Under the pieces are notes generated by a model. It was given only the letters and a program-made list of their open reading frames with translations, made no database searches and was not told the DNA's origin. A DNA stretch of 63,937 nucleotides, the filler included, from Jimgerdemannia flammicorona (lineage: Eukaryota), in the NCBI GenBank assembly GCA_003990765.1. It is 3 parts of 3 records of this genome, joined end to end, with 100 filler letters (N's around TTAATTAATTAA, not from the genome) between each part and the next. Parts side by side here need not be neighbours in the genome. Positions count along the whole stretch, not along the records: positions 42,697 to 63,937 come from RBNJ01001499.1; 2 more parts are not named here. One strand, written 5' to 3'. Shown piece by piece: positions 3,797 through 63,937 of the stretch (the stretch's first letter is position 1; each line of letters starts with the position of its first letter). The translations under genes were made by a program, and so were the position numbers.

Positions 3797-3838
<42 letters not shown>

Positions 3839-22314: not shown

Positions 22315-22367
<53 letters not shown>

Positions 22368-35276: not shown

Positions 35277-35354
<78 letters not shown>

Positions 35355-36047: not shown

Positions 36048-36084
<37 letters not shown>

Positions 36085-39000
36085 AAAGGCTCGGACGACC
36101 AAAGCTGATGAAAGATTCGGCTAAACACATCACATACATCTGTAATGAATTATAGGATGCCATCTCTAAGAAATCATACCTGACTCCGCCTTTCCAAATA
36201 AACCGCGGTGACGTGGATCAGGGGTTCGCGCAATCTGCCCATATCTTTGAAGGTAAGAATTTATTGGTGTCGATCCTTGCGACTTAATATAATGTCACCG
36301 AGCGGAAATTTACAAAAACCTCTCGGTTGACAATAGGGGAAGTTCATATTGGCGGGCAAGATCATTTCTACCTAGAAACCCACTCTGCTCGCGTCTCGCC
36401 TCGCTTCGAGAGCAACGAGTACGACCTTTACGTGTCGTCACAAAACATCAAAAGTTGCCAGGAGCAGATGGCACGAGCATTGGCTATCCCCTACCACAAG
36501 ATTCGTGCTCATGTGAAGAGAATGGGCGGGGCAAGTATTAGGTCGAAACCGCGTAATAGTGTGTATGGGTTTGTTGCTAGCGAAAAACATCTTAACATGC
36601 GGACCTTTCGCGATGCCTGTAGGCCTTCGGCGGCAAGGAAACGCGAGTATACTCGATGATAGTTGGTTGTGCGGTGGCAAGCAAGAAGGTTAAACGTCCG
36701 GTGAGGTGCATGTACAATCGTGACATGGACATGATCGCAACGGGTGGGCGACATCCGTTTTACGCCAAATGGAAGGTTGGCGTCGCTGCGAACGGCAAAA
36801 TTCTCTCCTTGGATCTGCAGGTACGTATGCTGGCGAATTCTCAACGTCCCGATGGCATGATTAATACAAGAACACGTTCTGCTCTTTGCCATGGTGTTAA
36901 TCTTCGCCCCTTCGAACCACATTAGCTTTACAGCAACGGTGGCTGGTCCCTTGACAGTAGCTACTATGTTATGATCCACGCGGTCATGAATTCGGACAAC
37001 GTGTACAATATCGCCAACTTCAATATAGTAGGCAACGTCTGCCGCACGAACTTGCCCTCTAATACCGCGATGCGGGGATTTGGCTCACCACAGGGTCTGC
37101 TTGTCGTGGAGGCGTTGATGGACGAGATCTCGAGGAAACTCCAGATACCATTGGACAAGCTTCATGTTGGTCCCAATTTCAGAGCAATCCTTTGTTAGTT
37201 TTGCACGACACCATTTTGAAAGTTTGGTAACTCGATCTAATCCCACACAACCTATGCAGGAATTGAACTTCTACCGTGAGGGCCAGCCCACGTTGCACAA
37301 AATCCCGCTCTTAGACTTCCATGCGCCCACCTGTTACGCGCAGGTGAAGCGACAGGCCGAGTACGAACGTCGCCGGCGCGAGGTAGACGAATTCAACAGC
37401 CAGAACAAGTGGCGCAAGCGCGGCCTATCCATCCTGCCCACCAAGCATCCCCTCGGATATGGCGGCATTGTACCATTAAATCAGGCGTCGGCCATCGTAC
37501 ACATGTACATGGATGGGTCGGTGCTCTTGTACCATTGTGGTACGGAGATGGGGTGTGTACGTTTGTTAGATGTTCGTTCGACGTCTATTCGCTCGTATGC
37601 ATTTATCGATTGGTTGCGTGATTTACGTTCTCAGCTCTTTTGTGTTTCGTCGACCCTAGCCAAGGCCTCAATACCAAGGTCGTCCAGGTTGCCAGTGAGA
37701 TCCTGTGCATTCCCACTTCATCCATATTTATCAGCGAGACCACCACTGACGCGACGCCGAATCCGAGCACCACCGGCGGCAGCATGGGATCCGATCTTAA
37801 CGGGGCCGCCGTAAAACTGGCGTGCGAAACCCTGGCGGAAAGATTGAGGCCATACCGGGAGAAGATGCCAGAAGCCCCTATGGACCAGGTATTTTCTGCG
37901 CCAAATGGGTGATTTGCGGGAGTGACTTTAGGATGATATCCTGATCACGCCTTTCGCGACCTAGATTGCGGAGGCAGCTTACAATGACCGGGTCAACTTG
38001 ACGGCCAATGGGTTCTACCAGACTCCATTGGTGGCGGACAATGCAGTATATATGTACTACTCATACGGCGCTGCGGTCACAGAGGTATTTCGATCGCCAT
38101 TTTTTATTTTGTGAAAAACGACCACCATTAAATATTTTTTTCAATGTCCCGTGAAACAGGTTGAGATGGACGTTCTCAGCGGAGACTGGTCCATTCTGCG
38201 AACAGGTTGGTTGTTTGAACCTGTGTTTCTCGTTCCGAGCCACCATATCCACCAAATGAATATTTTTTGATTACTCATCATAATCTTGCCAGATATCGTC
38301 ATGGATATCGGAAAATGTTTGAATCCCGCGTTGGATGTGGGCCAAGTGAGTAACAGTTTTGCCCACTTGGGGTTTCTGAATCAAATTTAACAAATCTCTT
38401 CATATTATCATCGTCCCCTTGATGGAAAACCAACTATTGTACGATCTAGATCGAAGGTGCTTTTATGCAAGGGATGGGTATGTATTTCAATGTATATCAA
38501 GAATTCAGTGATGAAACAATTCCTGGCGATTTCGTATCTCACATATGCTTTATCAGGCATGACTACACTTGAGGAAATCGTCTTCTCCAGCATGACCGGT
38601 GAAATGAAAACCAAAGGGCCCAACACGTATAAGCTGCCCACGGCCAAGTGCGTCGAGTTCTATGTAACCACATTTTCTCTCCTCCCCCACTTCGATCCTC
38701 TTCTCACTTCATCCGTCTTCCTTCAGGGACATCCCGCAGATCTTCAACATCAGCCTCGTCAAGGGCGTGACTTACGAAAACCTGCTCACCATCAACCGTT
38801 CCAAGGGGGTGGGCGAGCCACCGTTGTTCTTGGTGAGTGGAGAGATTTAGTTGTCCTCATTGGCTGCTGGTCGGCGATGTTCTTGTGCTCGGGTGTTGAT
38901 TACCGTTCCTATCCCCCCTCCCTCTGAAAACAGGGTAGCACTGCCTGCTTTGCCCTCAGGGACGCAATCTTGGCAGCCAGGTATGTGAACTGTTGGTGGA

Positions 39001-41765: not shown

Positions 41766-42596
41766 CTACACCAACGCTGACCTCTTTGCGATTGCGAACC
41801 CGACGACGGCAAACATTGCAAACACGCCGAGGATCCAAAAGAACCACACGAGGTCATCCTGGTCGCGGCCAGGAACCTTAACGTTCATGCCAAACAGACC
41901 GGTAACAAGGTTCATGGGCACGATGACGGTGGCGAAGACAGTAAGGCGCCCGACGACGTCGTTGGTGACGCTCGAGGTCTGCGTTAGCTCGATCGAGATC
42001 TGTGCCAGGTAATTGGAGTGCGAACGCGCCAGGATCGTCTCGTAATGGTTGAGGTTTTGAACCATCGTGACGATGTGGTCTGGTGCGGGTTCCGGTGTAC
42101 TTGTACTTTAGTGGATCGAACAAGTGACCAAACTACAAAGAAACAATCTCCGAGCGAGATAAAAAAAAAAAACGCACCGCACCTTGAATATCCCCCAGAT
42201 AGAGGGCAACATTATGGTGCATGGCTCTTTTATGCGCGTTTATCGGCGCACTCGATCCGCCCACTCCCGCCCCCGCCTCCAACCCCATCTCGTTGGCAAC
42301 CTCGAATCTCTTCATTAGACCCTTGACAACGTCTGCCTTGGTGCTGAGTAGCCTGAGCAGCTGCATGACCTTTTTACGGCAGTGTCCGATGCGGCGGAGC
42401 ATATCGGACTGCTCGGACTCACGCAGCAGCAGCACGAGATCGTCGATGGAGTCAACCTCGAGTTCAATCTGTTGAATCAGCGGCGCGAACGAATCTGTGA
42501 TGTCATCGATCAGCGCGTAGTTGATCCAGTCGGGGGTCACCGTGATGAAGTCCTTGAGCTGGCGGATGCGCTTGCGAACCTTATGGGGGTGGGGGG
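41766..42596 (-). CDS. CorA-family Mg2+ transporter (ALR-type), 3' portion; truncated by the linker
   Basis: VTPDWINYALIDDITDSFAPLI, EQSDMLRRIG, ALYLGDIQ/DHIVTMVQNLNHYE, PMNLVTGLFGMNVKVPG (GMN signature). One GT-AG intron. Confidence 0.93.
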
Positions 42597-42696
42597 NNNN
42601 NNNNNNNNNNNNNNNNNNNNNNNNNNNNNNNNNNNNNNNNTTAATTAATTAANNNNNNNNNNNNNNNNNNNNNNNNNNNNNNNNNNNNNNNNNNNN
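42597..42696. other. Artificial contig linker (N44-TTAATTAATTAA-N44)
   Basis: Identical structure to 21254-21353. Confidence 0.95.
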
Positions 42697-44522
42697 GGGT
42701 GTCCAAGAGGTGGATGTGGAGGGAGCTCGGGATGCTTCATGCTTGGGTTCTTCTTTCTTGGTCCAAGTCCTTTCCTTATTGTTGAATTGCCTTCGGGGCA
42801 GAATTGGTCCAGCTGTTAGGATTTACTTAACCATAGTCTTGATTCTTGCTAGGCACCATTGTTGGTAATCACAACCAACTGGGCGGCCTTGTTCTCGGAT
42901 TTTTCTAGTAAGCCATTCAGGCAGAGCATCGAATAAATGGTCTGCTCTTGTACCATTTCATGCTTCATCATTGGCAATGTATCCTAGGCCAATAGTGTTC
43001 AGGAGTGACTCGAGTTTTGTACAGAAGGTTTCAAATTCTTCTTTGCCATGTATATCAAATTTGAGGTTGTGGAGTTTTACTCAAGATTCAGCAATCATGG
43101 TTTCGCTGCAGTATTGAGCAATCATGAGTTGTTTGAGTCCAGGGGCTGCAGGATGGGCTCCATATCCTGGGGCATTGTTTGCTGCATTCTGAGTAACTAC
43201 TGCAGATTGGGTATCCCATGTGAGGAGTTTTTCAGGAAGGGTTCACCACCATTCTTTGGCAGGTCCTTGGAAGAATGTAACAACTCGGCGGACATAGGCT
43301 GTAGTTGTAGCAAAGAGTTGTTCCAGGGTGTGGTCTTGATTGTTTGTCAGAATGCAGTCAGCGACTCGCTCATTAGTCCATTGATTGGCTTCAAAGTTGG
43401 TGTCAACTACACTAATGAAGCTTTGGATTTCTTGTGCAGTACCATTGAAGATAGGTAGGCTCAGATTTTTAGTAGGTTGGGTCTGTTCAGCTAAGGCAGT
43501 AATGGTTGCTGCCATTATAGCTACTTGGGCTGTGAGGTCTAGAATCTGTTGGTTTGCTATGTTGATTGCTGGAGGCAGTTGGACTGCTGGTAGTGGTGTT
43601 ACTGGTACTACTTGAGGTACTGGTGCAGAGTGTGATGGGGTTCTTTGGGTCTGTGTAAGTTGCTGGAGTAGTAGTTGTAGGTCTGGAGTGAGGGCTTGAT
43701 AGATAGCTGTTTGTTGCTGTGTAGGTGTATTCTGTTCTGATGGATGTGTGTCTCCTTCGGTGGTGTATCCGGGATTGAATTCGGTGAGATACTCCTCCTC
43801 TTCTTCAGTTTGGTCCCCGTGTAATTGGGTTTGCTCAGCATCAAAGTAGACAGAATCAGTTGTATATCTGATTTCAGACAGACTTAATTCAAAGTCAAGT
43901 TCAGGTTCGGTATTGATTTCAGATTCAGGTAGGGCTGTAGCAGGGCCTGCTTCAGGTTTGGGGTCAGGTAGTTGATGAAGAGTTTCTCTTGCTTCTTCCT
44001 TAAGGATATGGCGGGCCTTGCTGTTCTGAAATCGGTAGTATAAGGCGGTCTTGGTTCTGGTGCGATGAAAGTCGGTAGAGTTGAGCTACTTGGCTACAGA
44101 GGCTTGGGCTTTGTGAGGAACTAAGACTAGAAAGACTGCTGCTGGTTGTCCTAGATCGCTCGGATTTGTGGAGCTGACAAAACTCTTATTGAGAAGAGTA
44201 AAGAAGGCTTCAATAAGACCTTCTTCATCTTAACTTACTGGGTGTAGTGCAAGGAGTTCGGTGAATAGGGTTTCGCCTATTTGCTGGTTTAACTGGAGTA
44301 CTTCTTTCTTTGAATGAAGTTTATCCCACTTGTTGCAGGTGTGGAGGTCAAATTGTCCTTATACGTCAGGTTCAATTCTCTCCAGATTGTTGGATGGTTC
44401 AGGATAAATTCTAGTTCAGAGGTTGGACTTTATACCAACTTATAGGAATTCGCAGAAGGGTTTGTAGTGGGGTGAGGAAGCGTCTTGAAGCGGAATTGGA
44501 TTATAAACCGCTGCTACCAAGT
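42697..44522 (-). mobile_element. Element D (family 2 Ty3/Gypsy): PBS and decayed gag, cut by contig end
   Basis: PBS TGGTAGCAGCGG follows the LTR end at 44523. Gag (LSLPIFNGTAQEIQSFISVVD..FFQGPAKEWW) is near-identical to the gag of element C. Confidence 0.88.
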
Positions 44523-46586
44523 TGTAAGAGGGTTACTTTTTAGGATAACCATTACATAGTTCTGGACAGGTTTTCTGGAAGTTCTGGATATTCTGGAAGA
44601 CTGTTTTCTTATGGTCAAGATCAATTTCATATGGAGTACGTCCTCTATGCTTATTGATTTCAAGATCAGGTTGATGTCTCAACCCAAGTCCTTTTTCGGA
44701 CTAGTTCTGGATGTTCAGGATTTTCCGTATTTCAGGAAGTTTAAGAAACTAAGACCAGCTTAGTTGAATTGGCATATCGCTGCAGACAATACCCAATTAG
44801 GAAATTTCGTGATGGGGTTAGGAGTAGGACCTAATAGAGAGCGGATTTACTTAAGAGTGGTTTGTGGGTTATTAAATAGATTTATTTGCTATTCATGATA
44901 TTGCTATACTAGGAGTAGTTGTGTGAAGGGGTATTGTGGGGAAGTGCTCAGGAGTTGTGTTTGGATTGTTCAAGTCTGAGATTCTGAGGTCTGGGGGAGG
45001 GGGTATTTATACTAGTGAGAGGCTATCTGGACTATGCTAGATATAGATGTAGTACTTAGTGCCTTGCTGAGTTGGAATACAGTCACGTAGTACAAGTGTG
45101 ATCTGATATGTCAAGAGATCGTCTGACTGCTGAGTCAGTTCACAGTCATGTCGTACAATGCTAATCTAACTATACTATGACTGTTAGGCTATTTATGGTT
45201 TAGGCACTGTCTGGGTAGTCTTCGATGACATCACTATCGATTGCATCATCTCAGATGAAGTAGTCATCTAGGAAGAGTGGTTTGCGGATTACTTCTCCTT
45301 GTTGGCTGAGGTAGTAATACATTGGGACTTCATCTCCGTCCCATAGGATAGCATCATCTGTTTCATATGCTGGATAAGGTGTTGGTGGGTAAAGGATGGA
45401 TATATTATCTTCGCTTTCATCGGATTCACTGTCTGCATACCTTCTATAGGTTACAGCACTATGAGTCACAGGGTTGTAGTAAGCTGGCGGCTGTGGTTCA
45501 TGTTGCTTATACTCAAGTGGTGGAGTTGTTGGTTCGATCTCGAGGGTTGTCTGGAGGTATAGATTGTGTTCTCCGGTCTCTTCATTGTAATTGAAGTAAT
45601 TGAGGGTGAATGCGGGTTGGTATTCGTGCCAGTGGTCATTGTCCCAATAAGTCTCGTATGTGGTTATGAACTGTTGTAAGTTCATTAGCAAGGTTGGCAG
45701 TGTGATCAGGGTTGGTAGAGATTCTTGGCTGGAGATCATATCAGCATCAGAGGGATCATTGTCTTCTGCTTCATCTTCATCGAAGTGGATTATATTGTAG
45801 ACGTCTTTCATGGCATATCCAACTTGGGGCATTTGCAGGATATAATCGTCAGAGTGTGAGAAGGTTCTGTCTGTGGTTTCAACATACTCGAGGTACTTGT
45901 GGTTGAGTTCTTGTATCATATCATCGATTTGGCTATAGGACAGAGTAGCAACCATTTCACTGGTAGTGACTTGGAGGCAGGGAATAAAGGTGCTGTACTC
46001 ATAAAAGAGTTCTCAGTGTTTGTAGACGATGAGCTTCTGGTGTTGAGACATCTGAGTAATGTCTGTGTCATGGTGGTGTTCGACTATATCTTCCAAGAGG
46101 CGGCCGATCTGGTAGTAGCTTGAGATTTGTCCGATTCAGTGGACCTCATTAAGCATGTTCAGGGCATTCCATCGGGCTTCACAAAGTAGAGGAGTGCTAG
46201 GCTATGGATATTCATAAGGGGCAGAGGGGGTGTGGCTCGGTTGACAATGGCATTCCAAATGTCAGCGCAGATGCAGTTGTAGATCTTGGTGGTCATGTTT
46301 GTATATGTTCAGAAGTTGTGGTTGTTGTTTGTTTTGGTTCTCTGTTTCAACGTGTCTCAGTGCTCGGTATATATGCATTTGATCCTGATTGGTAAGATTC
46401 CATTTGTGTGAATCTTGTATTCCATGACTTCATATTGACTCAGCTTTGTGCACTGTGACTTCGGTTTGACTCAGCTTTGTGATCAGGCAGGTAATTTCCA
46501 GATTTGTTCAGAGGTTGCATGTGATTTTGGTGGCTTGTTCAAAGTGTGATATGTGATTTCAGTAGCTTGGGAGTTGTGTGCTTACA
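44523..46586 (-). repeat. Family 2 LTR (2064 bp), serving as 3' LTR of B and 5' LTR of D
   Basis: TGTAAG..CTTACA termini, preceded by PPT AAGAAGGGGAGAGT (46587-46600) and followed by a PBS. TATAAATACCC at 45001-45011. Homologous to 60772-62245. Confidence 0.9.
45251..46296 (-). pseudogene. LTR-embedded accessory ORF (about 348 codons ancestrally; frameshift and stops)
   Basis: Homologous to 61031-61798. The 234-aa C-terminal part is open; the 5' part has a 1-bp deletion and TGA stops. Confidence 0.8.
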
Positions 46587-47086
46587 ACTCTCCCCTTCTT
46601 AGCTTTCGACGTCCTTGTCAGAGCCTTCTAATTTTGTTCTAGTACTGTTATATTGTTTAGGAGGTCAAAAGTTTGGTGAAGTCCATTTTTCTCAGAAAGT
46701 GGCATGCTCGTAGTACAGTTGCCTAACATGTTGGATTCACACGTTAAAGAGTCATGTATTTGATGCTATGCGCTGGAAGTGATTCTGACATCATTCACTG
46801 CTGGAGAATTTCCTCTAAGGAATCTTCTTAAATGTCTATGCCTCGTTTCCCACCAGTGGTATGGGGAGAATAGACTTGCTTTCAGTTTTGCTATTTTTCC
46901 AGAGGGTCGGTATTCTTGTCTTGTTTTGCTGAGTTCTTGGTTTTGTTCATGATAATTATAGTGTTCAGAAGGATAATATATAGTATATACTGATAGGTAT
47001 CAGAGTATTTAGATTTCAGTTATTCAGGGAATCGTATTCCTGAACTAAGTTGGTAGTATTCTGAAGGTTGGTCTTGGGTTCCTATG

Positions 47087-47915
47087 TGTAATAGAACGAA
47101 CAGATGGGACATGACAAACGATGAGCGATCACGTGACCTGGCGAGCGATGACGTTATCATACAAACGAAGCGCTACATATGAATTACGAACGATGCGAAA
47201 TGACATAGAAAACGATATCCAGCTTATCCCCAATAATCGGTGCCGCAGCCACAGTTGCCACAGCAGCTGATTATTGCCTAGTAATTGAGGTCCTGATCAC
47301 AAAGTTGTTTTTGCCAAAAACCACCTGACAAAGGTCGCGATCACAAACCTCATTATAGTTACCAAATTAGTCACTCATACTTAGTCAGAAATCGCAGACC
47401 AACTTGTATAAATACCCCCCAGTTTCCATCTAAAATAAAGCAGTTTTAGTTCAGTCCTTGATATAAGAATCAAGTCCCCCCCACACACACACATTCCCCT
47501 GAGTCTTAGTAATGACACCTAAGTGACTCTAGTGTTTCTGACTAAACTCCAGAAGCCTAGCTAACTTCTGCCAGAACTGAGACTGGTATATAAATCCTCA
47601 AAGACTTAAGTAAACCCATTGAACCTGAACTCCAAGGCGAATTCAGTCTGTGCACAGCAAAGAACAAGAGCCTCGAAATAGGGCACAAGAGAAAGACCTT
47701 TGAAAGATAAGGCACACAAGAGAAAGACCTTTGAAATAGAAGGCAAACCAGAAAGACCTTTGAAAGATAAGGCACTGCTGCTACAACTACTTTAAGTGAG
47801 CGCTTCCTCAAACCGAAGGCTTCTTGGTACACATTGTGTACTAAGTCCCTAAGTAATAGTCCACTTCCCTAATTATCCAAAGGATAAGAGAGGGGTAGAA
47901 GTGAGAGTTATTACA
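47087..47915 (+). repeat. 5' LTR of element A
   Basis: TGTAATA..TATTACA termini; TATAAATACCCC at about 47407; three ~30-bp AGAAAGACCTTTGAAA repeats at about 47680-47775. Confidence 0.95.
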
Positions 47916-47918
47916 ACT

Positions 47919-47938
47919 TGGTAGCAGCAGGTGGTTTA
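47919..47938 (+). promoter_or_regulatory. Primer binding site, initiator-Met tRNA type
   Basis: TGGTAGCAGCAGGTGGTTT 3 nt after the LTR; resembles the complement of eukaryotic tRNAi-Met 3' ends. Confidence 0.75.
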
Positions 47939-48020
47939 CCAGTCAAGAAGGCACCAAAGAATATACTCCTGAAGTTGGAACAAGACCAACCTTGGACAGG
48001 AGTAACCCCCAGGAACAACT

Positions 48021-51000
48021 GTGGATTCTCAAACCAGAGCCAGAGAAGCCCTTGCCATTAGGACCAGGTGGTTCCAGGAAACCACAGATACAGAGACCTG
48101 CCAACTTGTAATTGACCAGGCTTACAGGGATCTATACCAGGCCTTTAGGACATACCACTCAGGACTTAGGAATATTGTTAGCCACCATAGATTCTACAAA
48201 CTTCTCTGAGGACACATTGGAACCACTAGGACTCCAGAATCTACTGCTGCAGCCACCCAGGATTTTCTAGATTATATCACACCCCCTGCTGCAAAAGAAG
48301 CAGCTGCTGAGTGGATTGCCTCTGACAGATATCATCATACCTCTACCAAGACCTCCCTCTACTACAGGCTAGTTGTATACTACGCCTCTGCCATAACTAG
48401 GTACGAGAACGAGCAAGCAGGCCAACCATCCCCTACTGCTGAACAAGGAGCAGGTCCATCTACTCAGCCAGAGACTGATATTCTTTTTGAAGGACCTAGT
48501 CAGTACGAGGACGCACTATCTCATCAGGAAAGGGAGTCAGATGAAAACTCTACAGGTTACCAGTCTGACGATAGCTAACGAGAAATAGCAGGCCTAGGAA
48601 TTTACCAAGGAACCACAGATCAAGAAGATCAGACCCCAGAACCAACCCAGCCACCTATACAGAGGTTTGGTTTACCCTCCCTCACAGGACTCTTTGACTT
48701 AATATCCGGGAACCAAGTAACCCTAAGTCATACAGCACCACAACCCAACCAAGCAGAACAATTTACAGGAGAATCTACCCCAATAGGCCCACCACCAATA
48801 GTCAACACAATGGTAGATATCAATATCACAGCACTGACTACCCAGCTAGCAGCACTAGCAGGGATAGTAGGACAGATTGCTGAACAGAACAAACCAACCA
48901 AGACCTTGTGAATCCCAACATTCAGTGGAAAAAACAGTAATATTGAAAACTTCATCAATGCAGTTGACACAGGCTACCAAGCCAACCAATGGAATAATAA
49001 CCGAGTGCCTATAGGGATGCTCACCAACAACCAGAACAGCACCCTTCAACAGCTGTTTGCTACATCAGCAGCACAAGTGGAAACAGTAGCCTCATTCTTC
49101 ACTGGAACAGCAGCCGAATTCTGGCGAACCTTGGAACAACACCCAGTAACCTGGGAAGCCCGCCCTCAAGTCAATGGACAAGTACCTGGCAACAATAGAC
49201 CAGGTTGGGATGACCATGAAGCAGGCCCAGGACTCAAGGCCTTGCTACTGACCAAATTCCGAAATGCAGCCTACATATAAGAAACATGGAATAAACTGTC
49301 CCAGATGAAGTTCCACAAGAATGGTGAAGAAGATCTAGAGACCTTTGCCACCAGAATGGATGCCTATCTCAAAACCGTTGGACTTACCTACTAGGAAAAC
49401 AATTTGGCTATCAATGATACTAGAGCCAACCATCTCTTTGCAGCCCTACCAGACTGGCTCACCCAGAAGATCAAGAAACAAGGTCTTCCCCAAGGATGTC
49501 CCCACTACTCATGGTGTTTTGCCCAAGTACAAAGAAGAGCCCGCAAAATCCTTGCTGCACAAGCCCCACGAAATCAAGAACACAAGAAGGATAGCCAAGA
49601 TAGGAGAAACTCTACCAGGAGAAATGATCAAAGGAGTGACCAAAGATATGATCAAAGATATGATCAAAGGAACCAGCAAAACCCCAGAGAACCCAGACCT
49701 CCCACTGAGGATGAGAAGAAGCAGCTCCGTGAAAAGGGATTGTACTTCATCTGCAAGAAGGTAGGACATATCTCATTCAGATGCCCTGAGAAGAAGAACA
49801 GAACAGACGAACCCAGTAACCAGAACATTACTGTTATCAGAGAAGGTCTAGGAAAGAAGAACCCTGAGAATGTCATCAAAGTACAGAAGATATGGTACAA
49901 GGCTACCACCCCCACTAAGGCCCACCCAACAGATGCTGGATATAATCTCTACAGCAGTCAAGACCTCACCATTCTACCAAGTACCAATGCTACAGTATGA
50001 ACAGGGATTGCAATGCAAGCTTCCAAAGGAACATACATCTGCCTTGCTGAATGAAGCAGCCTAGCCAAAGAGTTCAACATTGGACTAGGAGGAGGAGTAG
50101 TTGACCAAGGATTTACTGGTGAAATCTGTGTCATCTTGCGAAATTTTGGAGACACATCATTTGAAGTCAAAACTGGCCAAAGAATTGCCCAAGCAATCAT
50201 TGAAGAAATCCATCAAGATCTCACCATTGAAGAAGTCCCCGAGCTCTCTCAGACAGATCATGGCAAGAAAGGGTTTGGATCTACCAACAAACCTCCCAGT
50301 CAAAAGGTCACTACCATGAAGGAAGATGATGAAAACTGGTACAAGAGAATTGCAGATAGTTATGCACCATGTGGATGATGCCCTCATTCTATTCGAATGT
50401 ACTGCATGGAACATGTTGGTGAATGCCATGCATGCCTCTCCAAAGTTTTCAAAATTCAATCCGAGAAATGCGAAGCTCAACAGACTGAGGAACCCAAACA
50501 AGACAACCCTCCTTGTGAAGGATGGAGAGAAACTGACTTTGAGGAGACTGACAGCAATTGGGACAACAATGGGGATAAAGAGCTCAATACCATCAAGAAG
50601 GAGGACAGTTGCATCAAGTTCACAGGCCAAGTCCACAGACAGAATGTCAATGTCTTGCTTGATAGCAGTGCTACCGGAAACTACATCAGCACCAAGACTG
50701 CTAAGAGAATTGGAGCCCAAAGCAGACCAACTACTGAGAAAAGAAGTATTACCTTCGGTGATAGAAAGACTGCGCCATTGACCAAGATCTGTGAAGATCT
50801 CTTGCTCAAGATTGGCAAATATCAAGAGAAGTTGGACTTCAGCATTGTAGACCTCCCAGGACAGGACATCATCCTAGGAAAAGCCTGGTTGACCCAACAC
50901 AACCCAGACATTAACTGGAGGACCAATGAGGTTAACCTGACCCACGAAGGCAGAAAGATCACCCTGACACCCCAGGAAGATACCAACCATCAAGGAATTG

Positions 51001-54000
51001 AAATCATCTCTGCCATTCAAATGAAGAGACTCTCTCGAAAAAAGGGAAATACCTACTTCATCTGTATAGTACAAGAAGTCACTGAAGCTACAAGCAGCCC
51101 AATTCCAACAGAAGCTCAAAAACTGTTTGAGAATTCCAAGATGTATTCTAGGACCCCCAAGGACTTCCACCCAAGCGCCAAATCCAACATGGAATTGACC
51201 TTATCCCAGGATCTGAACCCCCATACAAGAGTATCTACCAACTGGCCCAACCCGAGCTCAAGACCCTCAAGGATGAATTGACCAAACTACTGGCCCAAGG
51301 ATACATTGAACCCAGCCGCTCTCCATTTGGAGCCCCCATTCTATTTGTCAAGAAGAAGGATGGCTCTCTGCGAATGTGTATTGACTACAGAGCCCTCAAC
51401 AAAATCACCATCAAGAACTAGTATACCTTGCCCAGGATTGATGAGTTGCTACACCAAATTTTCAAGGCCAAGACCTTTTCCCTACTGGATTTGTGAAATG
51501 GTTACCACCAGATCCTCATTGATGAGAAGGACATAGAGAAGACAGCTTTCCGAACACAGTTTGGACACTACCAGTTCCGAGTCATGCCTTTTGGATTGAC
51601 CAATGCACTAGCAACATTCCAGTATCTGATGAATGACATCTTTGGACCACTCCTCAACATCTGTATCCTTGTGTACATTGATGATATACTAATCTACAGT
51701 GAGACAGTAGAGCTACACTACACCCACCTCAGACAAGTACTGACCCTTCTGCGAGAACACCAGCTCTATACCAAGATGAGCAAGTGTAAGTTCTATCAAG
51801 ACCAGATCGAGTACTTAGGATACATCATCTCTGCTGAAGGTATCAATGTGGACCCCCGAAAGGTATCAGCCCTCAAGGATATCCCTATCCCTACTACCCT
51901 CAAGCTGCTCCAGCACTTTCTGGGTATTGCCGGTTATTACCGAAGGTTTATCCAAGGATACTCTGCTATTGCAGCCCCACTGACCAGCCTGGCCCGCAAA
52001 GGAGTGAATATCAAAGCTGAATGGACCCCCGAATGCACCCTGGCTATGGACCATCTCAAAAGACTCCTTACTGAGGCCCCAGTGCTGATTGCACCTGACC
52101 CTACCAGACCATTCACTCTGACCACAGATGCCTCTGACATTGCTATTGGAGCAGTGCTCAGCCAAGAAGACTGCCCAGTGGCCTACCTTTCCCAGAAGCT
52201 CAAGCCAGCTGAGACCCGGTATACCACCCATGAGAAGGAACTCCTGGCTATTGTCACTGCACTCCAGGAATGGTGCCATTTCCTCCTAGGACAGCCATTT
52301 GTGACCTACACTGATCACTATGCACTGCGGTATATTCACACACAGCCTATGCTGACCCACAGACAAGCCTACTGGATGGAAATCATTGCCAACTTTGATA
52401 TGGAAATCAAGTATATCCCAGGCAAAACCAACTGTGTGGCTGATAGTTTCTCCAGATACATGGAAGATGAACTTGTCTTCATGGTCGAGGTAATTAGAGA
52501 CCTCACCCAGATGATCAAGGAAGGCTACCAGCAAGATAGCCCCCTTACGAATTTCCTTCAATTCTGCCAAGACCCAGAAGCCGAGGTCCCAGAACCCATG
52601 AGACAAATGGCCAAGAGATTCACCTACCATGATGGACTTATTTATAGGGACTATGACAGAGTGGTTGTACCCAACAATAATACTCTGCGACTCAAGATTA
52701 TGCAGGAACTCCATGATACTCCTGCAGCAGGATACTTTGGTTTCGAAAAGACCTACAACCTCCTCTCAAGAGAGTTCTATTGGCCAAAGATGACCAAGGA
52801 TATCGAAGACTTCGTGGCCTTATGCAAGATGTGCCAAAGGTTCAAAAGTGGTAACAAGCTACCAGCAGGACTCCTGCAACCCTTGCCTATCCCGAGTCAC
52901 AACTGGCACCAGATTGCAATGGACTTCATTGTCCAACTCCCCAAGACCAAGGCAGGATGGAATGCCATAGTGGTATTTGTGGACTGCCTAAGTAAACAAG
53001 CCCATTTTGCACCCACCAAGACCACTGCTATAGCACCAGAGATTGCTGAGATCTTTCTCAACTAAGTATTCAGGCTATATGGCATGCTTAGCACTATTGT
53101 ATCTGACCGAGATGCCAAGTTCACAAGTAACTTCTGGTAGACATTCTTCTCCCTCCATAGAACCAAGCTGAAGTTCTCTACTGCCTACCACCCTCAGACT
53201 GACAGTCAAACTGAGTGAACCAACAGGACTCTCAAACAGATGCTTAGCATCTTCTGCTGTTATAAGCAAAATGATTGAGACAAGTATCTAGCCCATGCTG
53301 AGTTTGCCTACAACAACAGTCAGCAAATCTCTACCAAGAAGACTCCATTCTTCCTGAACCATGGTCAACACCCTAGGACTCCTAGTACTACTGCGAAATC
53401 AGCAGTCCCAGCAGCCCAAGACCTGGCCGAGAGCATTTCTGACCATATGCGAATGACAAGAGATGCTCTCATAGAAGCACAAGACTATCAGATCAAGTAT
53501 GCGAACTTGAAGTGAAGAGAAGCCTCCTACAATATTGGTGATATGGTCATGCTTAGAACAGACCACCTCCACCCAGACACTCTGGCACAACAACTAGCCA
53601 AGAAACTCCATGCTAGAAGAATTGGACCCTACAAGATTGTGGAAAAAATCAGCGAAGTTAACTATAAGTTGCAACTTCCTCACAATATCCAAATACACCC
53701 AGTATTCCACATCAGCCAATTAGTGGACTACCATGAGAACCCATTCTCTGAGTGTACAGTTCTACCACCACCCCCAATTAGGATCAATGATCATGAGGAA
53801 TTCAAAATCGAGGAAGTACTTGACCACAAGGTCCGCAAATATCCCAAAACAGTCAAGCAGTTTTTCCTGATCACGTGGAAGGGTTACCCCACCCATGACG
53901 CCACCTGGGAAAAAGAAGAAGCCCTAAAGAATGCACACGAAGCTCTTCAGGACTACAAGGAAACTCTCACTCCCCAGGAAAGAAAGGAACTGCAGCTCTA

Positions 54001-54001
54001 G
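48021..54001 (+). pseudogene. gag-dUTPase-PR-RT-RH-IN-chromodomain polyprotein of A (many in-frame stops, a frameshift near 51130)
   Basis: YFICKKVGHISFRC knuckle; AGYNLYS..GVVDQGFTGEI..QRIAQ..GFGST dUTPase; LLDSSATGNYI; VYIDDILIYS; TTDASD; HDTP..GYFG..CKMC; GPY and HPVFH; FLITWKGYPTHDATWE. Confidence 0.93.
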
Positions 54002-54644
54002 ATTTTGGAACATACAGTGAGCAGAAGGATACTACATATCTTATCCGGAAATATATAATACCAAACATTGTGCAAAAAGGAATACTATGGATAACCAACA
54101 AGAAGATACCTGAGCAAAAGAATAATCTAGTACAGTACAGCAAAACACATTTGAACAACTCCATTTCACGCCATCTGTGTCATCTCTGCTGGATGATGAT
54201 GGATGCTTCATGTGAAATTTAGGAAAGCTGACAATGTCGAAACCAGTCTAAGCCCATCCACGTGACAGATATTATTACTAGGAATTGCCTCGGATTACAA
54301 GAAAAGTCTATTTCTGAGAGGTTCGAACCCCCAGCCATGACAATGGGAGCCCTCGCCCTAGACAAGGATGGCCAGTCCTCGTAAATGTGCCAACCAGACA
54401 AAAAAAAAGTGGACCAAGACCTGTTAACCCTGTGTAACCACAACTACGGGTGATGAGATCTTTGAAATCAGGATTTTCTCATGTAATCAGCACATGCTCC
54501 GCTTACAGCACAGGTCATGCATTTTGCCAGAAAGCATGACCAATGGAAGGTCACATCAGATGGGTGAATAAGTATAAATACCCAAGACAAGAATACCCCA
54601 CAACTCTCATCCCCCTTTCCTCACAAAGAAAAGACAAGACAAGA

Positions 54645-55454
54645 ATGCCTGCTACCCGCCGCCAAACTGCCCGCCATAGCCAACCCCTCCCAAGCCAGAT
54701 TGACCGCCTCTTTGGACACATCCAGGTTGCTATCCAAGAAAGGAACCACTGCTCAGAGGCCCTTAACCTCTCCAGCTAGGATCTAGGACACTATGTTCTT
54801 AACCACCATGAACTTATCGAAAGGGCCTACCTTGCTATCAGCCACCTAGAGATCTGGCATGAATACGAGATTGGCCATCAACTCCTCCAATGGGCAAAGA
54901 ACCTACCCACAGATCAAGTCTCTAATTGGACTCACCTAGACAGACACGAGCAAAGACTTGCCAAGAAGGTCCATCAAATCATGCGCCATGCCCCCTTCGC
55001 GATCCCCAACCTCAACTATATATAACTAAAGGACTTCCAGAATCTCTCTTTCCCCAAGGTCGATGCCCTAGAAGTCAAGGTCACCCAAGAAGCCAACTCC
55101 TGGATTGTCCTCAAGTCTACTGACTGCGAACCCTACTGGAGCCCCCTCCTTAATAACAATCCTGACCAATGGCTCCAAGGTCTCTCTGACCTCCTTGAAG
55201 GACCACCTATCTAAATGGATATTCCTAGGCATGAAGATCAAGAGCCCTACTTGGATGGCCCCAACCGCATCAGATGGAGAACCCCTACACCAGCACCTAT
55301 TCCAATACAAGAACCATTTGCAGACCTCATTGACTTCTCCATCCTGGACAGCGAGCCATCTGCAACCACCACCCCCCCTGCCCCTGAGGAAGATTTCCCA
55401 CCTTTCTCTCCCCTGGTTCTCAATTTCTCAATCAACAAGGACGTTGATTTCTAA
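54645..55454 (+). pseudogene. Accessory ORF between integrase and PPT of A (269 codons, 3 in-frame stops)
   Basis: ATG 54645 follows TATAAATACCC (54573). One frame to TAA 55454, with stops at 54777, 55023 and 55212, each explicable by a single transition. Confidence 0.75.
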
Positions 55455-55465
55455 GGGGGGAAGGA
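55453..55465 (+). promoter_or_regulatory. Polypurine tract of A
   Basis: AAGGGGGGAAGGA directly before the TG of the 3' LTR. Confidence 0.9.
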
Positions 55466-56294
55466 TGTAATAGAACGAACAGATGGGACGCGACGAATGA
55501 TGAGCGATCACATGACCCGGCGAGCGATGACGTCATCATATGAATGAAGCGCGATATATGAATTATGAACAATGTGAAACGACGTGGAAAACGATATCCA
55601 GCTTATCTCTAATAATTGGCACCGCAGCAACAGTTGCCACAGCAGCTGATCATTGCCTAGTAATTGAGGTCCTGATCACAAAGTTGTTTTTGCCAAAAAC
55701 CACCTGACAAAGGTTGTGATCACAAACCTCATTATAGTTACCAAATTAGTCACTCATACTTAGTCAGAAATCGTGGACCAACTTGTATAAATACCCCCCA
55801 GTTTCCATCTGAAATAAAGCAGTTTTAGTTCAGTCCTTGATACAAGAATCAAGTCCCCCCCACACACACACATTCCCCTGAGTCTTAGTAATGACACCTA
55901 AGTGACTCTAGTGTTTCTGACTAAACTCCAGAAGCCTAGCTAACTTCTGCCAGAACTGAGACCGGTATATAAATCCTCAAAGACTTAAGTAAATCCATTG
56001 AATCTGAACTCCAAGGCGAATTCAGTCTGTGCATAGCAAAGAACAAGAGCCTCGAAATAGGGCACAAGAGAAAGACCTTTGAAAGATAAGGCACACAAGA
56101 GAAAGACCTTTGAAATAGAAGGCAAACCAGAAAGACCTTTGAAAGATAAGGCACTGCCACTACAACTACTTTAAGCGAGCGTTTCTTCAAACCGAAGGCT
56201 TCTTGGTACACATTGTGTACTAAGTCCCTAAGTAATAGTCTACTTCCCTAATTATCCAAAGGATAAGAGAGGGGTAGAAGTGAGAGTTATTATA
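55466..56294 (+). repeat. 3' LTR of element A
   Basis: Colinear 829-bp copy of 47087-47915; terminal CA mutated to TA. Confidence 0.95.
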
Positions 56295-59200: not shown

Positions 59201-59859
59201 GGAGATGGCAAAAAGAGGGCATTTCTTGGCCAATTTCTTGAGTTGTAGTTTGTTTATATGAGTGATATTTGGTCCAGGTTCACTAGAGTTGAGTGGGTCT
59301 TTTTCGCCTTACAGCTTGAAGTTGTGGCATCCTTTCTTGATGGTCAGAGAGTGGTTTACCCAATCGATCATGGGGTCCCAAGAATGATCTCATTATCAGG
59401 AAGTGGTACGATTTGGAGGGTAACATGTACTCAGTAGTCACCAATTCGGAAGGGCAGATTGCGGACTTCTTTGCTAATAACATGTAAGGTTCCATCAGCT
59501 GTTGCAACTGCTTGAGTTTGTTGTACTGGAGAGGTGAAGACCTTGAGTCTGTTGGCTGTTTCTTCATTGATAAAGTTACCTGAGGCACCACTGTCTATCA
59601 TAATCTTAACAGGTGCTCGGTTGACAAAAGCTTTGAGTGTAAGCAATTTGTCAGATTCAATGGTAGTGATTTTGGTTGTAGGAGCTTTCCTTCTGTTGGT
59701 TCTTCTTTGAGCCAGTTCATTGACACAAGAGAAGCAATCATCAATCATTCAGGAAGAGTACATTCCAATACCATAGGGGCATTGGCCACTTAGTACATAT
59801 CTGTCTTCTATTTTCTTGTAGAATTGTTCTTCTTTGTTCGCAGTAGGTTGGGCTGGGGC

Positions 59860-60280
59860 CTTATTTGATGAACCAAATCCTTTGGATCCTCGGATGGTGG
59901 GTAGTAGTTCGGAGACTTCCTTGACTGTCAGGGTTGACTCGATTTTCTCGAATAGGATCTGAGCAATGCAGAAACCTATGGGGATCTTGAAGGGTGTCCA
60001 ACTGTGGTTTCGGATGAGGACAATAATTTCGCCTATATAATCTTCATCAATGACTCCTCCTTCTACTGAGAGTCCTTTCAATGCTAGGCTGCTGCGACAG
60101 CATATTCTTCTAACATGTCCTTCAGGAATTTGGATGCTGATTCCTGTATAGACTTGCTTGACTTCTCGGTTGGAGACCATAGCTTCTTTGGCTGCATATA
60201 GGTCATATCCAGCTGCTTTTTGACTTCCTTTGGTTGGAGCTTTAGCAGTTTGTCTTAACTTGACAAAGTCTAGTATTCTG
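59860..60280 (-). CDS. dUTPase domain of element B
   Basis: APTKGSQKAAGYDLYA, RSSLA, GGVIDEDYIGEI, IAQILF and RGSKGFGSS (motifs 1-5). Confidence 0.92.
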
Positions 60281-60771
60281 GTGGTCAGGTTATTGAGGTG
60301 GTGCAGAGTGGTAACAGTTACTCATGTTGCTGTTCAGGGTTTTTGGTTGGGGTAGGCATTGGCCATGTGTCCTATCTTTCAGCAATAGAAGCATGCTCTG
60401 CTTCTTCTAAGTTAATTTCTTTCTCCTTCAGTGAGTTTCTTGAAGGTACTCGGCTGGGTGGGTTCATGATTTCTGGGTGTCCACGAAGTGGATGTTGAGG
60501 GAGCTCATGATGCTTCATACTTGGGTTCCTCTTTCTTGGTCCAAGTCTTTTCCTTGTTGTTGAATTGTCTTCAGGGCAGAATTGGTTCAGCTGTTAAGAT
60601 TCACTTGACCATAGTCTTGATTCTTGCTAGACACCATTGTTGGTGATCACAACCAACTGGGTGGCCTTGTTCTCAGATTTTTCTAGTAAGCCATTCAGGC
60701 AGGGCATCAAATAAATGGTCTGCTCTTGTACCATTTTGTGCTTCATCATTGGCGATATATCCTAGGCCAAC

Positions 60772-62245
60772 TGTAAGCGCACAACCTCCAAGCCACAGAA
60801 ATCACACATCACCCTCTGAACAAATCTGGAAATTACCTGCAAGATCACAAAGCTGAGTCAAACTGAAGTCACAGCGCACAAAGCTGAGTCAACACGAAGT
60901 CACGGAACACAAGATTCATACAAACAGAATCTTACCAATTAGGACTACATGCATATATACCGAGCACTAAGACGCGTCAAAACAGAGAACCAAAATAAAC
61001 AACAACCACAACTCCTAAACATACACAAACATGACCACTGAGATCTACAACCACATCTGCACTGACATTTGGAATGCCATTGTCAACCGAGCAACACCCC
61101 CTCTGCCCCTCATGAATATCCATAGCCTAGCACCCCTCTATTTCGTGGAAGCCCGATGGAATGCCCTGAACATGCTTAATGAGGCCCACCAGATTGGACA
61201 AATCTCAAGCTACTACCAGATCGGCTGCCTCTTGGAAGACATGGTCGAACACCACCATGATACAGACATTACCCAAATGTCTCAACACCAGAAGCTCATT
61301 GCCCGCAAACACCGAGAACTCTTCTATGAGTATAGCACCTTTATTCCCCACCTCCGAGTTACTACTAGCGAAATGGTTACTACCCTGTCCTATGGCCAAA
61401 TCGACGACATGATACAAGAACTCAACCACAAGTACCTCAAGTATGTTGAAACCACAGACAGAACCTTCCCACACCCCGACGATCACATCCTGCAAATGCT
61501 CCAAGTTGGATACACTATGAAGGATGTCTACGATATAATCTACTTCGATGAAGATGAAGCAGAAGATAATGATCCCTCTGATGCCGACATGACCTCAAGC
61601 CAAGGATCTCTGCCAACCCTGATCACACCGCCAACCCTGCCGATGAACCTACAACAGTTCATAACCGCCTATAAGACTTATTGGGACAATGACCATTGGT
61701 ACGAATACCAACCCACGTTCACTCCCGATTACTTCAACTACAATGAAGAAACTGGAGAACACAACCTATACCCCCAGACCTCAGAATCTGAGACTTGAAC
61801 AATCCGAACACAACTCCTGAGCACTTCCCCACAATATCCCTTCACACAACTACTCCTAGTATAGCAATATCATGAATAGAGAATAAATCTATTTAATAAC
61901 CCACAAACTACTCTTAAGTAAATCTGCTCCCTGTTAGGTCCCACTCCTATCCCCATTACGAAATTTCCTAATTGGGTATTGTCTGCAGCGATACACCAAT
62001 TCAACTAAGCTGGTCTTAGTTTCTTGAACTTCCTGAAATACAGAAAATCCTGAACATCCAGAACTAGTCCGAAAAAGGACTTTGGTTGAGATGTCAACCC
62101 GATCTTGAAATCAATAAGCGTAGAGGACATACTCCATACGAAATTGATCTTGACCATAAGAAAACGGTCTTCCAGAATATCCAGAACTTCGAGAAAACCC
62201 TTCTAGAACTACGTAACAGTTACCCTAAAAAGCAACTCTCTTACA
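60772..62245 (+). repeat. 5' LTR of C (1474 bp, internally deleted)
   Basis: Homologous to 44523-46586 but lacks a 560-bp segment. Confidence 0.9.
61031..61798 (+). CDS. LTR-encoded accessory protein of unknown function (255 aa, C-terminus lost by deletion)
   Basis: Open ORF wholly inside the LTR, preceded by two TGAGTCA sites (60854, 60885) and a TATA-like CATATATA (about 60952). Confidence 0.8.
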   Translation: MTTEIYNHICTDIWNAIVNRATPPLPLMNIHSLAPLYFVEARWNALNMLNEAHQIGQISSYYQIGCLLEDMVEHHHDTDITQMSQHQKLIARKHRELFYEYSTFIPHLRVTTSEMVTTLSYGQIDDMIQELNHKYLKYVETTDRTFPHPDDHILQMLQVGYTMKDVYDIIYFDEDEAEDNDPSDADMTSSQGSLPTLITPPTLPMNLQQFITAYKTYWDNDHWYEYQPTFTPDYFNYNEETGEHNLYPQTSESET

Positions 62246-63937
62246 ACTTGGTAGCAGTGGTTTACAATCCAATTCTGCTTCAAGATGCTTCCTCACCCCA
62301 CTACAAAACCCCTCTGCGAATTCCTACAAGTTGGTATAAAGCCCAACCTCTGAACTGGAATTTATCCTGAACCATCTGACAATCTGGAGAAAATTGAACC
62401 TGATGTACAAGGACAATTTGACCTCCACACCTGCAACAAGTGGGACAAACTTCATTCAAAGAAAGAAGTACTCCGATTAAATCAGCAAATAGGCGAAACC
62501 CTATTCACCGAACTCCTTGCACTATACCCAGCAAGTCAAGATGAAGAAGGTCTTATAGAAGTCTTCTTTACCCTTCTCAACAAGAGTTTTGTCAGCTCTA
62601 CAAATCCGAGCAACCTAGGACAACCAGCAGCAGTCTTTCTAGCCTTAGTTCCTCATGAAGCCCAAGCCTCTGTAGCCAAGTAGCTCAACTCTACTGACTT
62701 CCACCATACTAGGACCAAGACTGCATTATACTACCGATTCCAGAACAGCAAGGCCCGCTATATTCTTAAGGAAGAAGCAAGAGAAACCCTTCATCAGCTA
62801 CCGGACCCTGAACCAGAAGCAGGCCCTGCTACTGCCCTACCTGAATCTGAAACCAATACCAAACCAGAACTTGACTTTGAATTAAGTCCATCTGAAATCA
62901 GATATACAACTGATTCTATCTACTTTGATGCCAAGCAAACCCAATTACACAGGGACCAAACCGAAGAGGAGAAGGAGTATCTCAGTGAATTCGATCCCGG
63001 ATACACCACCGAAGGAGACGCACCTCCATCAGGCCAGAATACACCTACACAGCAACAGACAGCTATCTATCAAGCCCTTACTCCAGACCCACAACTATTA
63101 CTCCAGCAACTTACATAGACTCAAAGAACACCATCATACTCTGCACCAGTATCTCAAGTAGTAGCAGTAACACCACTACCAGTAGTCCAACCGCCTCCAG
63201 TAAACAACATGGCGAACCAACAGATTCTAGACCTCACAGCCCAGGTAGCCATAATAGCAGCAACCATTACTGCCTTAGCTGAACAGAACTGACCTACAAA
63301 AAATCTGAGCCTACCTACCTTCAATAGTACTGCACAAGAAGTCCAAAGCTTTATTAGTGTAGTTGATACCAACTTTGAAGCCAATCAATGGACTAATGAG
63401 CGAGTTGCTGACCATGTTCTGACAAACAATCAAGACCACACTCTGGAACAACTCTTTGCCACTACCACAGCCTATGTCCGCCGAGTTGTTACATTCTTCC
63501 GAGGACCTGCCGAAGAATGGTGGTGAACCCTTCCTGAAAAACCCCTCATATGGGACACCTGACCTGCAGTAATTGCCCAGAATGCAGCAAACAATGCCCC
63601 AGGATATGGAGCCCATCCTGCAGCCCCTGGACTCAAACAACTCATGATTGCTCAATACTGCAGTGAAACCATGATTGCTGAATCCTGAGTAAAACTCTGC
63701 AATATCAAATTTGATGTATATGGCAAAGAAGAATTCGAAACCTTTTATACAAAACTTGAATCACTCCTGAACACCGTTGGCCTAGGATATATTGCCAATG
63801 ATGAAGCACGAAATGGTACAAGAGCAGACCATTTATTCGATGCCCTGCCTGAATGGCTTACTAGAAAAATCCGAGAACAAGGCCGCCCAGTTGGTTGCAA
63901 TCACCAACAATGGTGCCTGGCAAGAATCAAGACTATG

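Follow-up and report, generated by a model that had tools for sequence, protein, structure and literature searches.

Can the long terminal repeat (LTR) of a retrotransposon hold a protein-coding gene of its own? The question is raised by positions 60772–62245 of a stretch of DNA from Jimgerdemannia flammicorona (NCBI GenBank assembly GCA_003990765.1), the whole of which, 63,937 nucleotides with filler included, is called the window below. A preliminary description made from the sequence alone placed a gene in the LTR of a fungal chromovirus family, here family 2. The window consists of three contigs, joined by N44-TTAATTAATTAA-N44 linkers at 21254–21353 and 42597–42696. Adjacency across these linkers is meaningless, and the LTR open reading frame (ORF) sits in the third contig (42697–63937), together with the family-2 copies A, B and C. 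The best explanation, to which a probability of about 0.7 is given, is that a selected gene of approximately 365 codons lies wholly in the U3 (unique 3′) region of an LTR of approximately 2.06 kb, in a chromodomain-containing Ty3/gypsy lineage that is probably fungal.

The limits of the family-2 LTR are set by its ends, by the polypurine tract (PPT) and by the primer-binding site (PBS).

60772–62245, plus strand: LTR copy A, 1474 bp, a deletion derivative with TGTAAG..CTTACA ends
44523–46586, minus strand: LTR copy C, 2064 bp, the full-length form, with TGTAAG..CTTACA ends, PPT and PBS
62246–62260, plus strand: ACT spacer and PBS TGGTAGCAGTGG of copy A, TGGTAGCAGTGG itself being 62249–62260
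44508–44522, minus strand: ACT spacer and PBS of copy C, identical in layout to copy A
46588–46600, minus strand: polypurine tract AAGAAGGGGAGAG, one base before the start of LTR copy C

The two TG..CA-delimited LTR copies with PPT and/or PBS that had been described are borne out, copy C showing both of these signals and copy A showing the PBS. Short terminal inverted repeats are present exactly at the proposed ends (TGTAAG at 60772 and 46586, CTTACA running to 62245 and 44523), and the two LTRs are 88.8–92% identical. Copy C is preceded by the end of pol, with its chromodomain, and the PPT, and it is followed by the PBS and gag. The left end of LTR copy A adjoins unrelated sequence of copy B, which has the opposite orientation, as a nested insertion would have it. 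Because the window self-comparison revealed no internal direct repeat between PPT and PBS, this interval is read as a single LTR. The PBS TGGTAGCAGTGG starts 3 nt past the CA of the LTR. The same junction occurs in 33 metagenome loci, many of which have gag-like ORFs downstream (as read from the sequence), and family 1, a chromovirus of the same contig whose LTRs are defined as a pair, has the same succession of TTACA, ACT and TGGTAGCAG. TGGTAGCAGTGG may correspond to the initiator-Met transfer RNA (tRNA); a tRNA scan of the window gave no gene to pair with the PBS.

Contigs of four sequencing runs were aligned to positions 42697–47086. They span the whole of LTR copy C, including the ORF and the 560-bp segment that copy A lacks, and no joint listed among them matches the copy A deletion. 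Two contigs of run X20 match up to the final base of the LTR (44523) and then diverge from each other, a break that agrees with the proposed LTR end. Contig depth, which is unfit for ranking parts of a sequence, was not used as evidence. In X19 and X20, for which the RNA label is a guess, the summed depth peaks at 44608–45048, past the TATA box, and is low over the ORF; in X1 the LTR has a higher depth than the sequence on either side of it. Family-2 sequence is partly present in soil metagenome runs and in the runs of two organisms, and none of the listed holders is recorded as RNA.

If the contig were chimeric or collapsed, the LTR limits would be wrong, and the ORF would be internal, following pol and preceding a 3′ LTR of smaller size, an arrangement known from plant elements. 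The contig does start and finish in repeats, contigs with the order pol-LTR-gag are common among the metagenome loci, and no family-2 LTR pair is available. However, the ORF follows the PPT, which marks the start of U3, and precedes the PBS of the same copy, and in copy A the ORF segment is the 5′ end of an element that adjoins unrelated DNA. Moreover, L031, a metagenome element described below, independently shows this order, and the terminal inverted repeats fall exactly at the proposed ends. Misplaced limits are therefore very improbable.

Two forms of the ORF are present within these LTRs.

61031–61798, plus strand: LTR ORF, truncated allele of 255 codons and a stop, of which only the first 247 or so codons are native
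45200–46296, minus strand: native-length LTR ORF of approximately 365 codons, broken
61770/61771, plus strand: deletion junction of copy A from the alignment of A and C, with approximately 560 bp missing (copy C 45557–44998)

In copy C the ORF is situated between PPT and PBS, and in copy A at the 5′ end of the element, before the PBS; this position supports an ORF inside the LTR. The ORF at 61031–61798 is open over 255 codons, as had been stated, but it is not the native gene. A deletion flanked by CC(C/T)CCAGAC microhomology removed the last 110 or so ORF codons, a TGACTCA site and the TATAAATACCC box. Since it took the 3′ third of the ORF, the frame of copy A is a truncated allele with a short new tail of a few foreign codons, and this copy, which had attracted attention in the first place, is a dead derivative that also lost the main TATA box. 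The deletion probably arose after insertion. For copy C, a disrupted ORF had been reported at 45251–46296. The start at 46296 and the disruption hold, with a 1-bp deletion at codon 39 and in-frame TGA stops at codons 54, 95 and 348. The reported end does not hold, as the frame continues past the TGA at 45251 to a TAA at 45202–45200; at the position of this TGA, the homologue P0002 (see below) has CGA (Arg).

Is this ORF a gene, or is it an accidental open frame? The longest sense ORF reaches 259 codons for LTR A and 253 for LTR C, compared with maxima of 194 and 193, respectively, in 1000 dinucleotide-preserving shuffles per LTR; the longest ORF of the family-1 LTR has 51 codons. Copies A and C have 246 codons of the ORF in common and differ within them at 80 sites, distributed 24/14/42 over the three codon positions; 43 of these differences are synonymous, 35 are non-synonymous and 2 are stop changes. 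The resulting synonymous share is 0.54 vs. a neutral expectation of 0.37, a value reached in 0.0002 of 5000 neutral simulations, which used transitions only and took their rates from a fit to each base and to its CpG context. The other five frames gave 14–32 synonymous changes each. By this CpG-aware test on the two window copies, the differences favor synonymous sites. The A–C comparison corresponds to a ratio omega of approximately 0.5, and the constraint in the active lineage is probably stronger than this ratio indicates, because copy C has decayed since its insertion. Given the shuffle test, the synonymous excess and the existence of a diverged homologue that is open, the ORF looks like a real gene under constraint.

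The divergence between A and C consists almost wholly of transitions (77 of the 80 differences in the ORF), many of them at CpG (60772–63937 compared with 42832–46586). Between the family-2 copies, approximately 32–41% of the CpG positions are changed vs. 5–12% elsewhere. Such CpG-biased transitions would be consistent with repeats that were silenced and lost methylated cytosines by deamination.

Homologues were sought in protein databases of 5.8 and 1.8 billion proteins. P0002, a product of 247 amino acids from a 998-bp contig of another sample, is open; it is 65% identical to the copy A product and shows 63% identity and 82% positives to copy C over 234 amino acids, with two gaps of two residues. 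P0003 (128 amino acids) is 92% identical to the N-terminus of the LTR-ORF product. A native protein of approximately 365 amino acids is supported, since P0002 spans the part deleted in copy A, reads Arg at the third TGA of copy C and ends at the same ..YPDS position as the copy C frame. A search for near relatives of P0001, the family-2 LTR-ORF product, gave one match. Used as a query itself, P0002 matched only itself. An alignment-based search for shorter relatives, among proteins of 30–69 amino acids, gave none, and a scan of JGI metagenomes with the family-2 protein alignment gave 21 pattern matches, none of which was confirmed. Two further candidate relatives, P0004 and P0005, were rejected as spurious, being internally repetitive and matched in 6 and 9 short stretches, respectively.

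The family-2 LTR proteins are acidic (isoelectric points, pI, of 4.5 and 4.1), have a high content of aromatic residues, and lack any segment resembling a signal peptide or a membrane span. The N-terminal half is predicted to be mostly helical and is followed by a tail that is acidic and has many Tyr, Trp and Pro residues. The helical domain and the acidic, Tyr/Pro-rich tail of the preliminary description are thus found back in the composition; the resemblance to a transactivator or anti-silencing factor that was drawn from them has no support beyond this composition. A possible PPxY late domain at the C-terminal PPTPY was dropped, as the motif is inexact.

To which part of the LTR the gene belongs can be judged from four sequence motifs.

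60842–60912, plus strand: 31-bp tandem repeat in 2.3 copies, with TGAGTCA at 60854–60860 and 60885–60891; conserved in copy C at 46436–46473
60952–60961, plus strand: TATA-like CATATATACC, approximately 75 bp before the ATG of the ORF, a candidate gene promoter by its motif; identical in copy C
45131–45137, minus strand: TGACTCA site, which precedes the main TATA box by 126 bp
45001–45011, minus strand: TATAAATACCC, the likely core promoter box, which would mark the 3′ part of U3; copy C only

The TATA-like box and the tandem TGAGTCA sites that had been noted before the ORF are present, and the repeat that holds the latter is conserved in copy C. TGAGTCA as such is without enrichment in the window (8 matches vs. 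10.95 expected). The leader from CATATATACC to the ATG is A/C-rich and free of ATG. At the other side, the ORF of copy C ends 189 bp upstream of the TATAAATACCC box, and an AATAAA follows approximately 115 bp past the TATA box in the family-2 LTR. From GTATAAATACC to the LTR end there are 508 bp in family 1, 488 bp in family 2 and 415 bp in L031, and from the LTR start to GTATAAATACC 320 bp, 1575 bp and approximately 1100 bp, respectively. Because the box keeps a similar distance to the LTR end in all three, with the variation in length confined to the part upstream, the GTATAAATACC/TATAAATACCC box is likely the core promoter of the genomic RNA, which would place the ORF in U3. The earlier placement of the ORF upstream of the main box, hence in U3, finds support in the conservation of this box in three families, with the correction that the box lies outside 60772–62245 and is present in copy C only.

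Alternatively, the gene could be inside the LTR yet in R (repeat) and U5 (unique 5′), with the two TGAGTCA sites and CATATATACC forming the promoter of the genomic RNA, and the ORF forming the first cistron of its leader, repeated at the 3′ end of the RNA. In favor of it are the TATA-like box approximately 75 bp before the ATG and the A/C-rich, ATG-free leader; L031 has a similar GCATATAAC approximately 54 bp before its ATG, and copy A retains the upstream module despite the loss of the downstream TATA box. Nevertheless, this arrangement is improbable, as both the sequence of GTATAAATACC and its distance to the LTR end (415–508 bp) are conserved in three families, including family 1, which has no ORF. 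In addition, an R region of more than 1 kb would be unusual in an LTR, and the deletion of copy A is probably of later date than its insertion.

A location in U3, the preferred reading, has a counterpart outside the window. When metagenome contigs were screened for the LTR-end/PBS motif, 33 loci (L001–L033) were obtained, none of which contains the family-2 LTR or ORF as judged by tblastn and blastn. By reading of their ORFs, many represent parts of related elements in the order pol-LTR-gag or LTR-gag, and finding pol-LTR-gag on one metagenome contig is expected from tandem elements or from the assembly collapse of two LTRs. The loci belong to a soil-metagenome Ty3/gypsy group that has the PPT AAG(A/G)AGGGGAGA, TGTAA..TTACA LTR ends and an ACT+TGGTAGCAGCGG primer site in common. 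In one of them, L027, kinase-like ORFs are found upstream of the LTR (by reading of the sequence). Both the AAG(A/G)AGGGGAGA-TGTAA start and the PBS are visible in 9 of the 33 loci, and the ninth of these is L031, a JGI soil contig with an LTR of approximately 1.5 kb.

L031 has a chromodomain (Pfam E 4e-19), and its pol tail is 53% identical to copy B over 134 amino acids and 45% identical to family 1. Its PPT leads into TGTAAG, and the U3-start blocks ATCACATATCA and GAAATTAC are common with family 2. The LTR contains an ORF at 813–1448 of 211 codons from the ATG, or 239 from stop to stop vs. a shuffle maximum of 222. Downstream of it follow a TGACTCA (112 bp before the box), the TATA box itself, and an LTR end and PBS like those of family 2. 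Family 2 and L031 are thus alike in PPT, TGTAAG start, U3-start blocks, the combination of TGACTCA and the GTATAAATACC box, LTR end, PBS and the slot of the ORF. They differ in the product, which in L031 is a protein of 211 amino acids with a basic N-terminus (pI 8.1 overall), and in that pol of L031 ends at the LTR start, without the 3′ spacer that family 2 has. The L031 product (P0006) clusters at 90% identity or above into a set of 10 variants, which come from ENA, Logan, JGI and another source; 3 of the 10 have the full 211 amino acids, in-frame indels of 3, 1 and 6 residues occur, and residues 94–147 are invariant. Its basic, Pro/Arg-rich N-terminus contains RGRP, which may be an AT-hook-like core, and is followed by predicted helices. 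In the ESM Atlas, P0006 retrieved only unnamed or unrelated clusters at 0.90–0.92. By their motif order, two related families appear to hold a long ORF in the same U3 slot.

Several observations weigh against a selected gene in U3. The selection signal is moderate and comes from 80 differences, and part of the A–C divergence arose after insertion. Among the 5.8 and 1.8 billion proteins there are just two homologues of the LTR ORF, and because gene callers report open frames only, the fact that the homologue is open is partly a matter of ascertainment. The LTR-ORF product has no Pfam family at E≤0.01 or 0.1, a PDB sequence search gave nothing below E 0.18, and the ESM Atlas has no usable relative of it (P0001). 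The AlphaFold check that had been proposed was uninformative, since both single-sequence models are unusable, with a mean predicted local distance difference test (pLDDT) score of 36.9 for P0001, predicted as mostly helices in residues 1–170, and of 40.2 for P0006. P0001 and P0006 show no significant similarity to each other (BLASTP E 0.59; hhalign probability 0.2%), so that a single gene conserved across families is unsupported. Eight of the nine loci with both ends have LTRs of approximately 280–490 bp, without room for such an ORF. Finally, both family-2 copies in the window are dead, with stops in gag and a broken ORF in copy C, and in no family-2 element could two LTRs together with a target duplication be observed; the contig has both of its ends inside repeats.

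Part of this list would suit an ORF that is a passenger without a role in the element, either captured into U3 at one time or kept open only by the T-poor composition of the strand, and now decaying. The sense strand has only 21–23% T and consequently fewer stops, both window copies are dead, the family is near-absent from protein databases, most related elements do without the ORF, and neither structure model is confident. On the other hand, shuffles that preserve composition never match the observed length, the synonymous excess is confined to the ORF frame, and the homologue, at 63–65% identity, differs by conservative replacements and whole-codon gaps. The L031-type ORF, moreover, is intact in several samples and has an invariant core. 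A passenger is accordingly considered unlikely.

For the selected U3 gene, the following mode of action can be proposed. Each LTR would contain two promoter modules: the two TGAGTCA sites with CATATATACC before the gene, and TGACTCA with TATAAATACCC behind it, the latter driving the genomic RNA. The first module would give a short mRNA starting near 60990 and ending in the polyadenylation region of the LTR, and the gene would additionally be the 3′-terminal cistron of the genomic RNA. Transcription of the gene from its own upstream module, with polyadenylation at the LTR signal region, is suggested by these motifs at somewhat below even odds. By analogy with sag or nef, a possible but less probable route is translation from the 3′ end of an element RNA, either spliced or full-length, of which the gene would be the last cistron. 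Reverse transcription copies a gene situated between PPT and PBS to both ends of each new insertion; a gene within the duplicated unit is therefore present twice per insertion, and a solo LTR that results from LTR–LTR recombination would retain one copy. The duplication at each insertion and the persistence in solo LTRs that had been proposed follow from this position. As to the product, our best guess is a nuclear trans-acting helper of the element, which is favored because of its composition and because the gene travels with its promoter. Activation of transcription, handling or export of RNA, and counter-silencing may be considered as its task, and each of them individually is doubtful.

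The arrangement has its closest counterparts in retroviruses. Mouse mammary tumor virus (MMTV) sag is a superantigen gene in the U3 of the LTR, and human immunodeficiency virus (HIV) nef and the foamy-virus bel/bet genes overlap the 3′ LTR. Like MMTV sag, the family-2 frame would be a coding frame in U3, duplicated at both ends of the integrated element and situated downstream of pol in the genomic RNA. In contrast to the hosts of sag, nef and bel, the family-2 host is a chromodomain Ty3/gypsy element without env and not a retrovirus, and its gene would lie wholly in U3 with its own candidate promoter, without overlap of the internal region. The lack of a Pfam family and of a PDB match below E 0.18 holds for any relation to sag, nef or bel as well. 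Since there is no sequence relationship to these genes, the family-2 gene is best seen as a layout analogue of U3-encoded retroviral genes and not as a member of them.

Among LTR retrotransposons, additional ORFs (aORFs) have been described in plant Grande, RIRE2, Retand and the env-like case of Athila, and in Botrytis Boty; passages of a review assign them to the internal region, where most of them follow pol and precede the 3′ LTR (Vicient and Casacuberta, 2020; PMC7264820). As far as these passages go, the family-2 gene resembles aORFs in being a lineage-specific gene without assigned function or host homologues, present in most family copies, but it differs in lying downstream of the PPT and inside the LTR, and not in the internal region (PMC7264820). 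Fungal chromoviruses with a dUTPase comprise the PosPlaTy3 families of Postia placenta and elements of Phanerochaete and Tuber, and family 2 is alike in having an integrase C-terminal chromodomain and a dUTPase upstream of protease and reverse transcriptase (RT), as far as can be judged from the accessible portion of the paper (Novikova et al., 2010; PMC2864245). In that portion, a figure legend indicates an “add. ORF” of unassigned function for some elements, and no ORF is placed in an LTR (PMC2864245). Phrase and term searches of the literature, of partial coverage so that an earlier description is possible, gave no gene inside the LTR of an LTR retrotransposon and returned retroviruses only, among them MMTV, whose LTR is said to contain an ORF (PMC9412291), in line with the earlier statement that genes encoded in the LTR or U3 are tied to retroviruses and atypical for Ty3/Gypsy.

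The surroundings of the LTRs, mapped by window self-comparison and Pfam domain scans, consist of nested elements.

62261–63937, plus strand: internal region of family-2 copy A (leader and gag-like part, with stops), reaching the contig end
56293–60771, minus strand: pol of family-2 copy B, with dUTPase, RT, RNase H, integrase and positions 1–33 of the chromodomain
47087–56292, plus strand: family-1 chromovirus, complete, inside the copy B chromodomain
46601–47086, minus strand: remainder of copy B, with the chromodomain end (WEPKTNLQ..) and an untranslated 3′ spacer up to the PPT
42697–44507, minus strand: gag-like 5′ internal region of family-2 copy C, beginning at the contig end

Family 1 contains protease, RT, RNase H, integrase and chromodomain, between two ORF-free LTRs of approximately 829 bp each that are 95% identical. 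Its insertion made a 5-bp target duplication (CATGG/CATAG) within the copy B chromodomain. When the family-1 insert and one of the two 5-bp target duplicates are removed, the frame of copy B is restored (..KGYLIHDATW/EPKTNLQNTTNLVQEY..), and 46601–47086 is for this reason read as the end of copy B pol with its 3′ spacer. On the minus strand, this spacer is followed by the PPT, LTR copy C, ACT with the PBS, and the gag-like region. Copies B and C overlap (60475–60770 vs. 42697–42992) at 91.6% identity, i.e., 8.4% difference, and the order pol-LTR-gag is therefore ascribed either to two copies in tandem or recombined with each other, or to different copies having been joined in the assembly.

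Pfam recognized on copy B a Chromo domain (E 7e-9, cut by the family-1 insertion) as well as RVT_1, RT_RNaseH, Integrase_H2C2 and rve. With a C-terminal chromodomain on its integrase and gypsy-type RT, RNase H and integrase, the family-2 host element is classified as a chromovirus. The dUTPase domain upstream of RT in family-2 pol lies at 59749–60321 (minus strand; Pfam E 3.5e-34), a feature that certain chromoviruses of basidiomycetes and Tuber are reported to have as well. The region from PBS to pol (62261–63937; 43243–44085 on the minus strand) gave no Pfam match, including an open stretch of 280 amino acids in copy C; in copy A it carries several stops, and gag of family 2 is poorly recognizable.

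Other features of the window concern neither family. A CorA-like fragment is situated at 42133–42648 (minus strand), on a separate contig from copy C. Xanthine-dehydrogenase-like pieces (FAD_binding_5, CO_deh_flav_C, MoCoBD_2) occur in separate frames at 34615–37814, which suggests a eukaryotic gene with introns, and an F-box-like ORF is found at 15006–16631 (minus strand). By self-comparison, short low-complexity repeats at 3774–3867, 22308–22380 and 35278–35370, on the first two contigs, are mutually 87–94% identical.

Retrotransposon LTRs are usually treated as regulatory DNA and are masked by annotation pipelines. A selected gene in U3 alters gene dosage, with two copies per element and one per solo LTR, and Ty3/gypsy elements would gain an accessory-gene strategy that so far has been linked to complex retroviruses. 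More tentatively, there may be a branch of soil-fungal chromoviruses with a layout like that of complex retroviruses, in which each LTR is a self-contained gene with an enhancer and TATA module, a coding frame and a polyadenylation region of its own, the gene in the U3 slot is a cassette exchangeable between families, and the product is a trans-acting factor that either boosts the family or weakens silencing by the host. If this layout is true, every insertion adds two expressed copies and every solo LTR remains one, and the presence of unrelated ORFs at the same slot in family 2 and L031 would be explained, because the U3 cassette would be exchangeable. If, furthermore, the product has a role in transactivation or counter-silencing, these elements would offer a simple fungal system for the acquisition of regulatory genes by retroelements, and solo LTRs would be candidate sources of orphan host genes.

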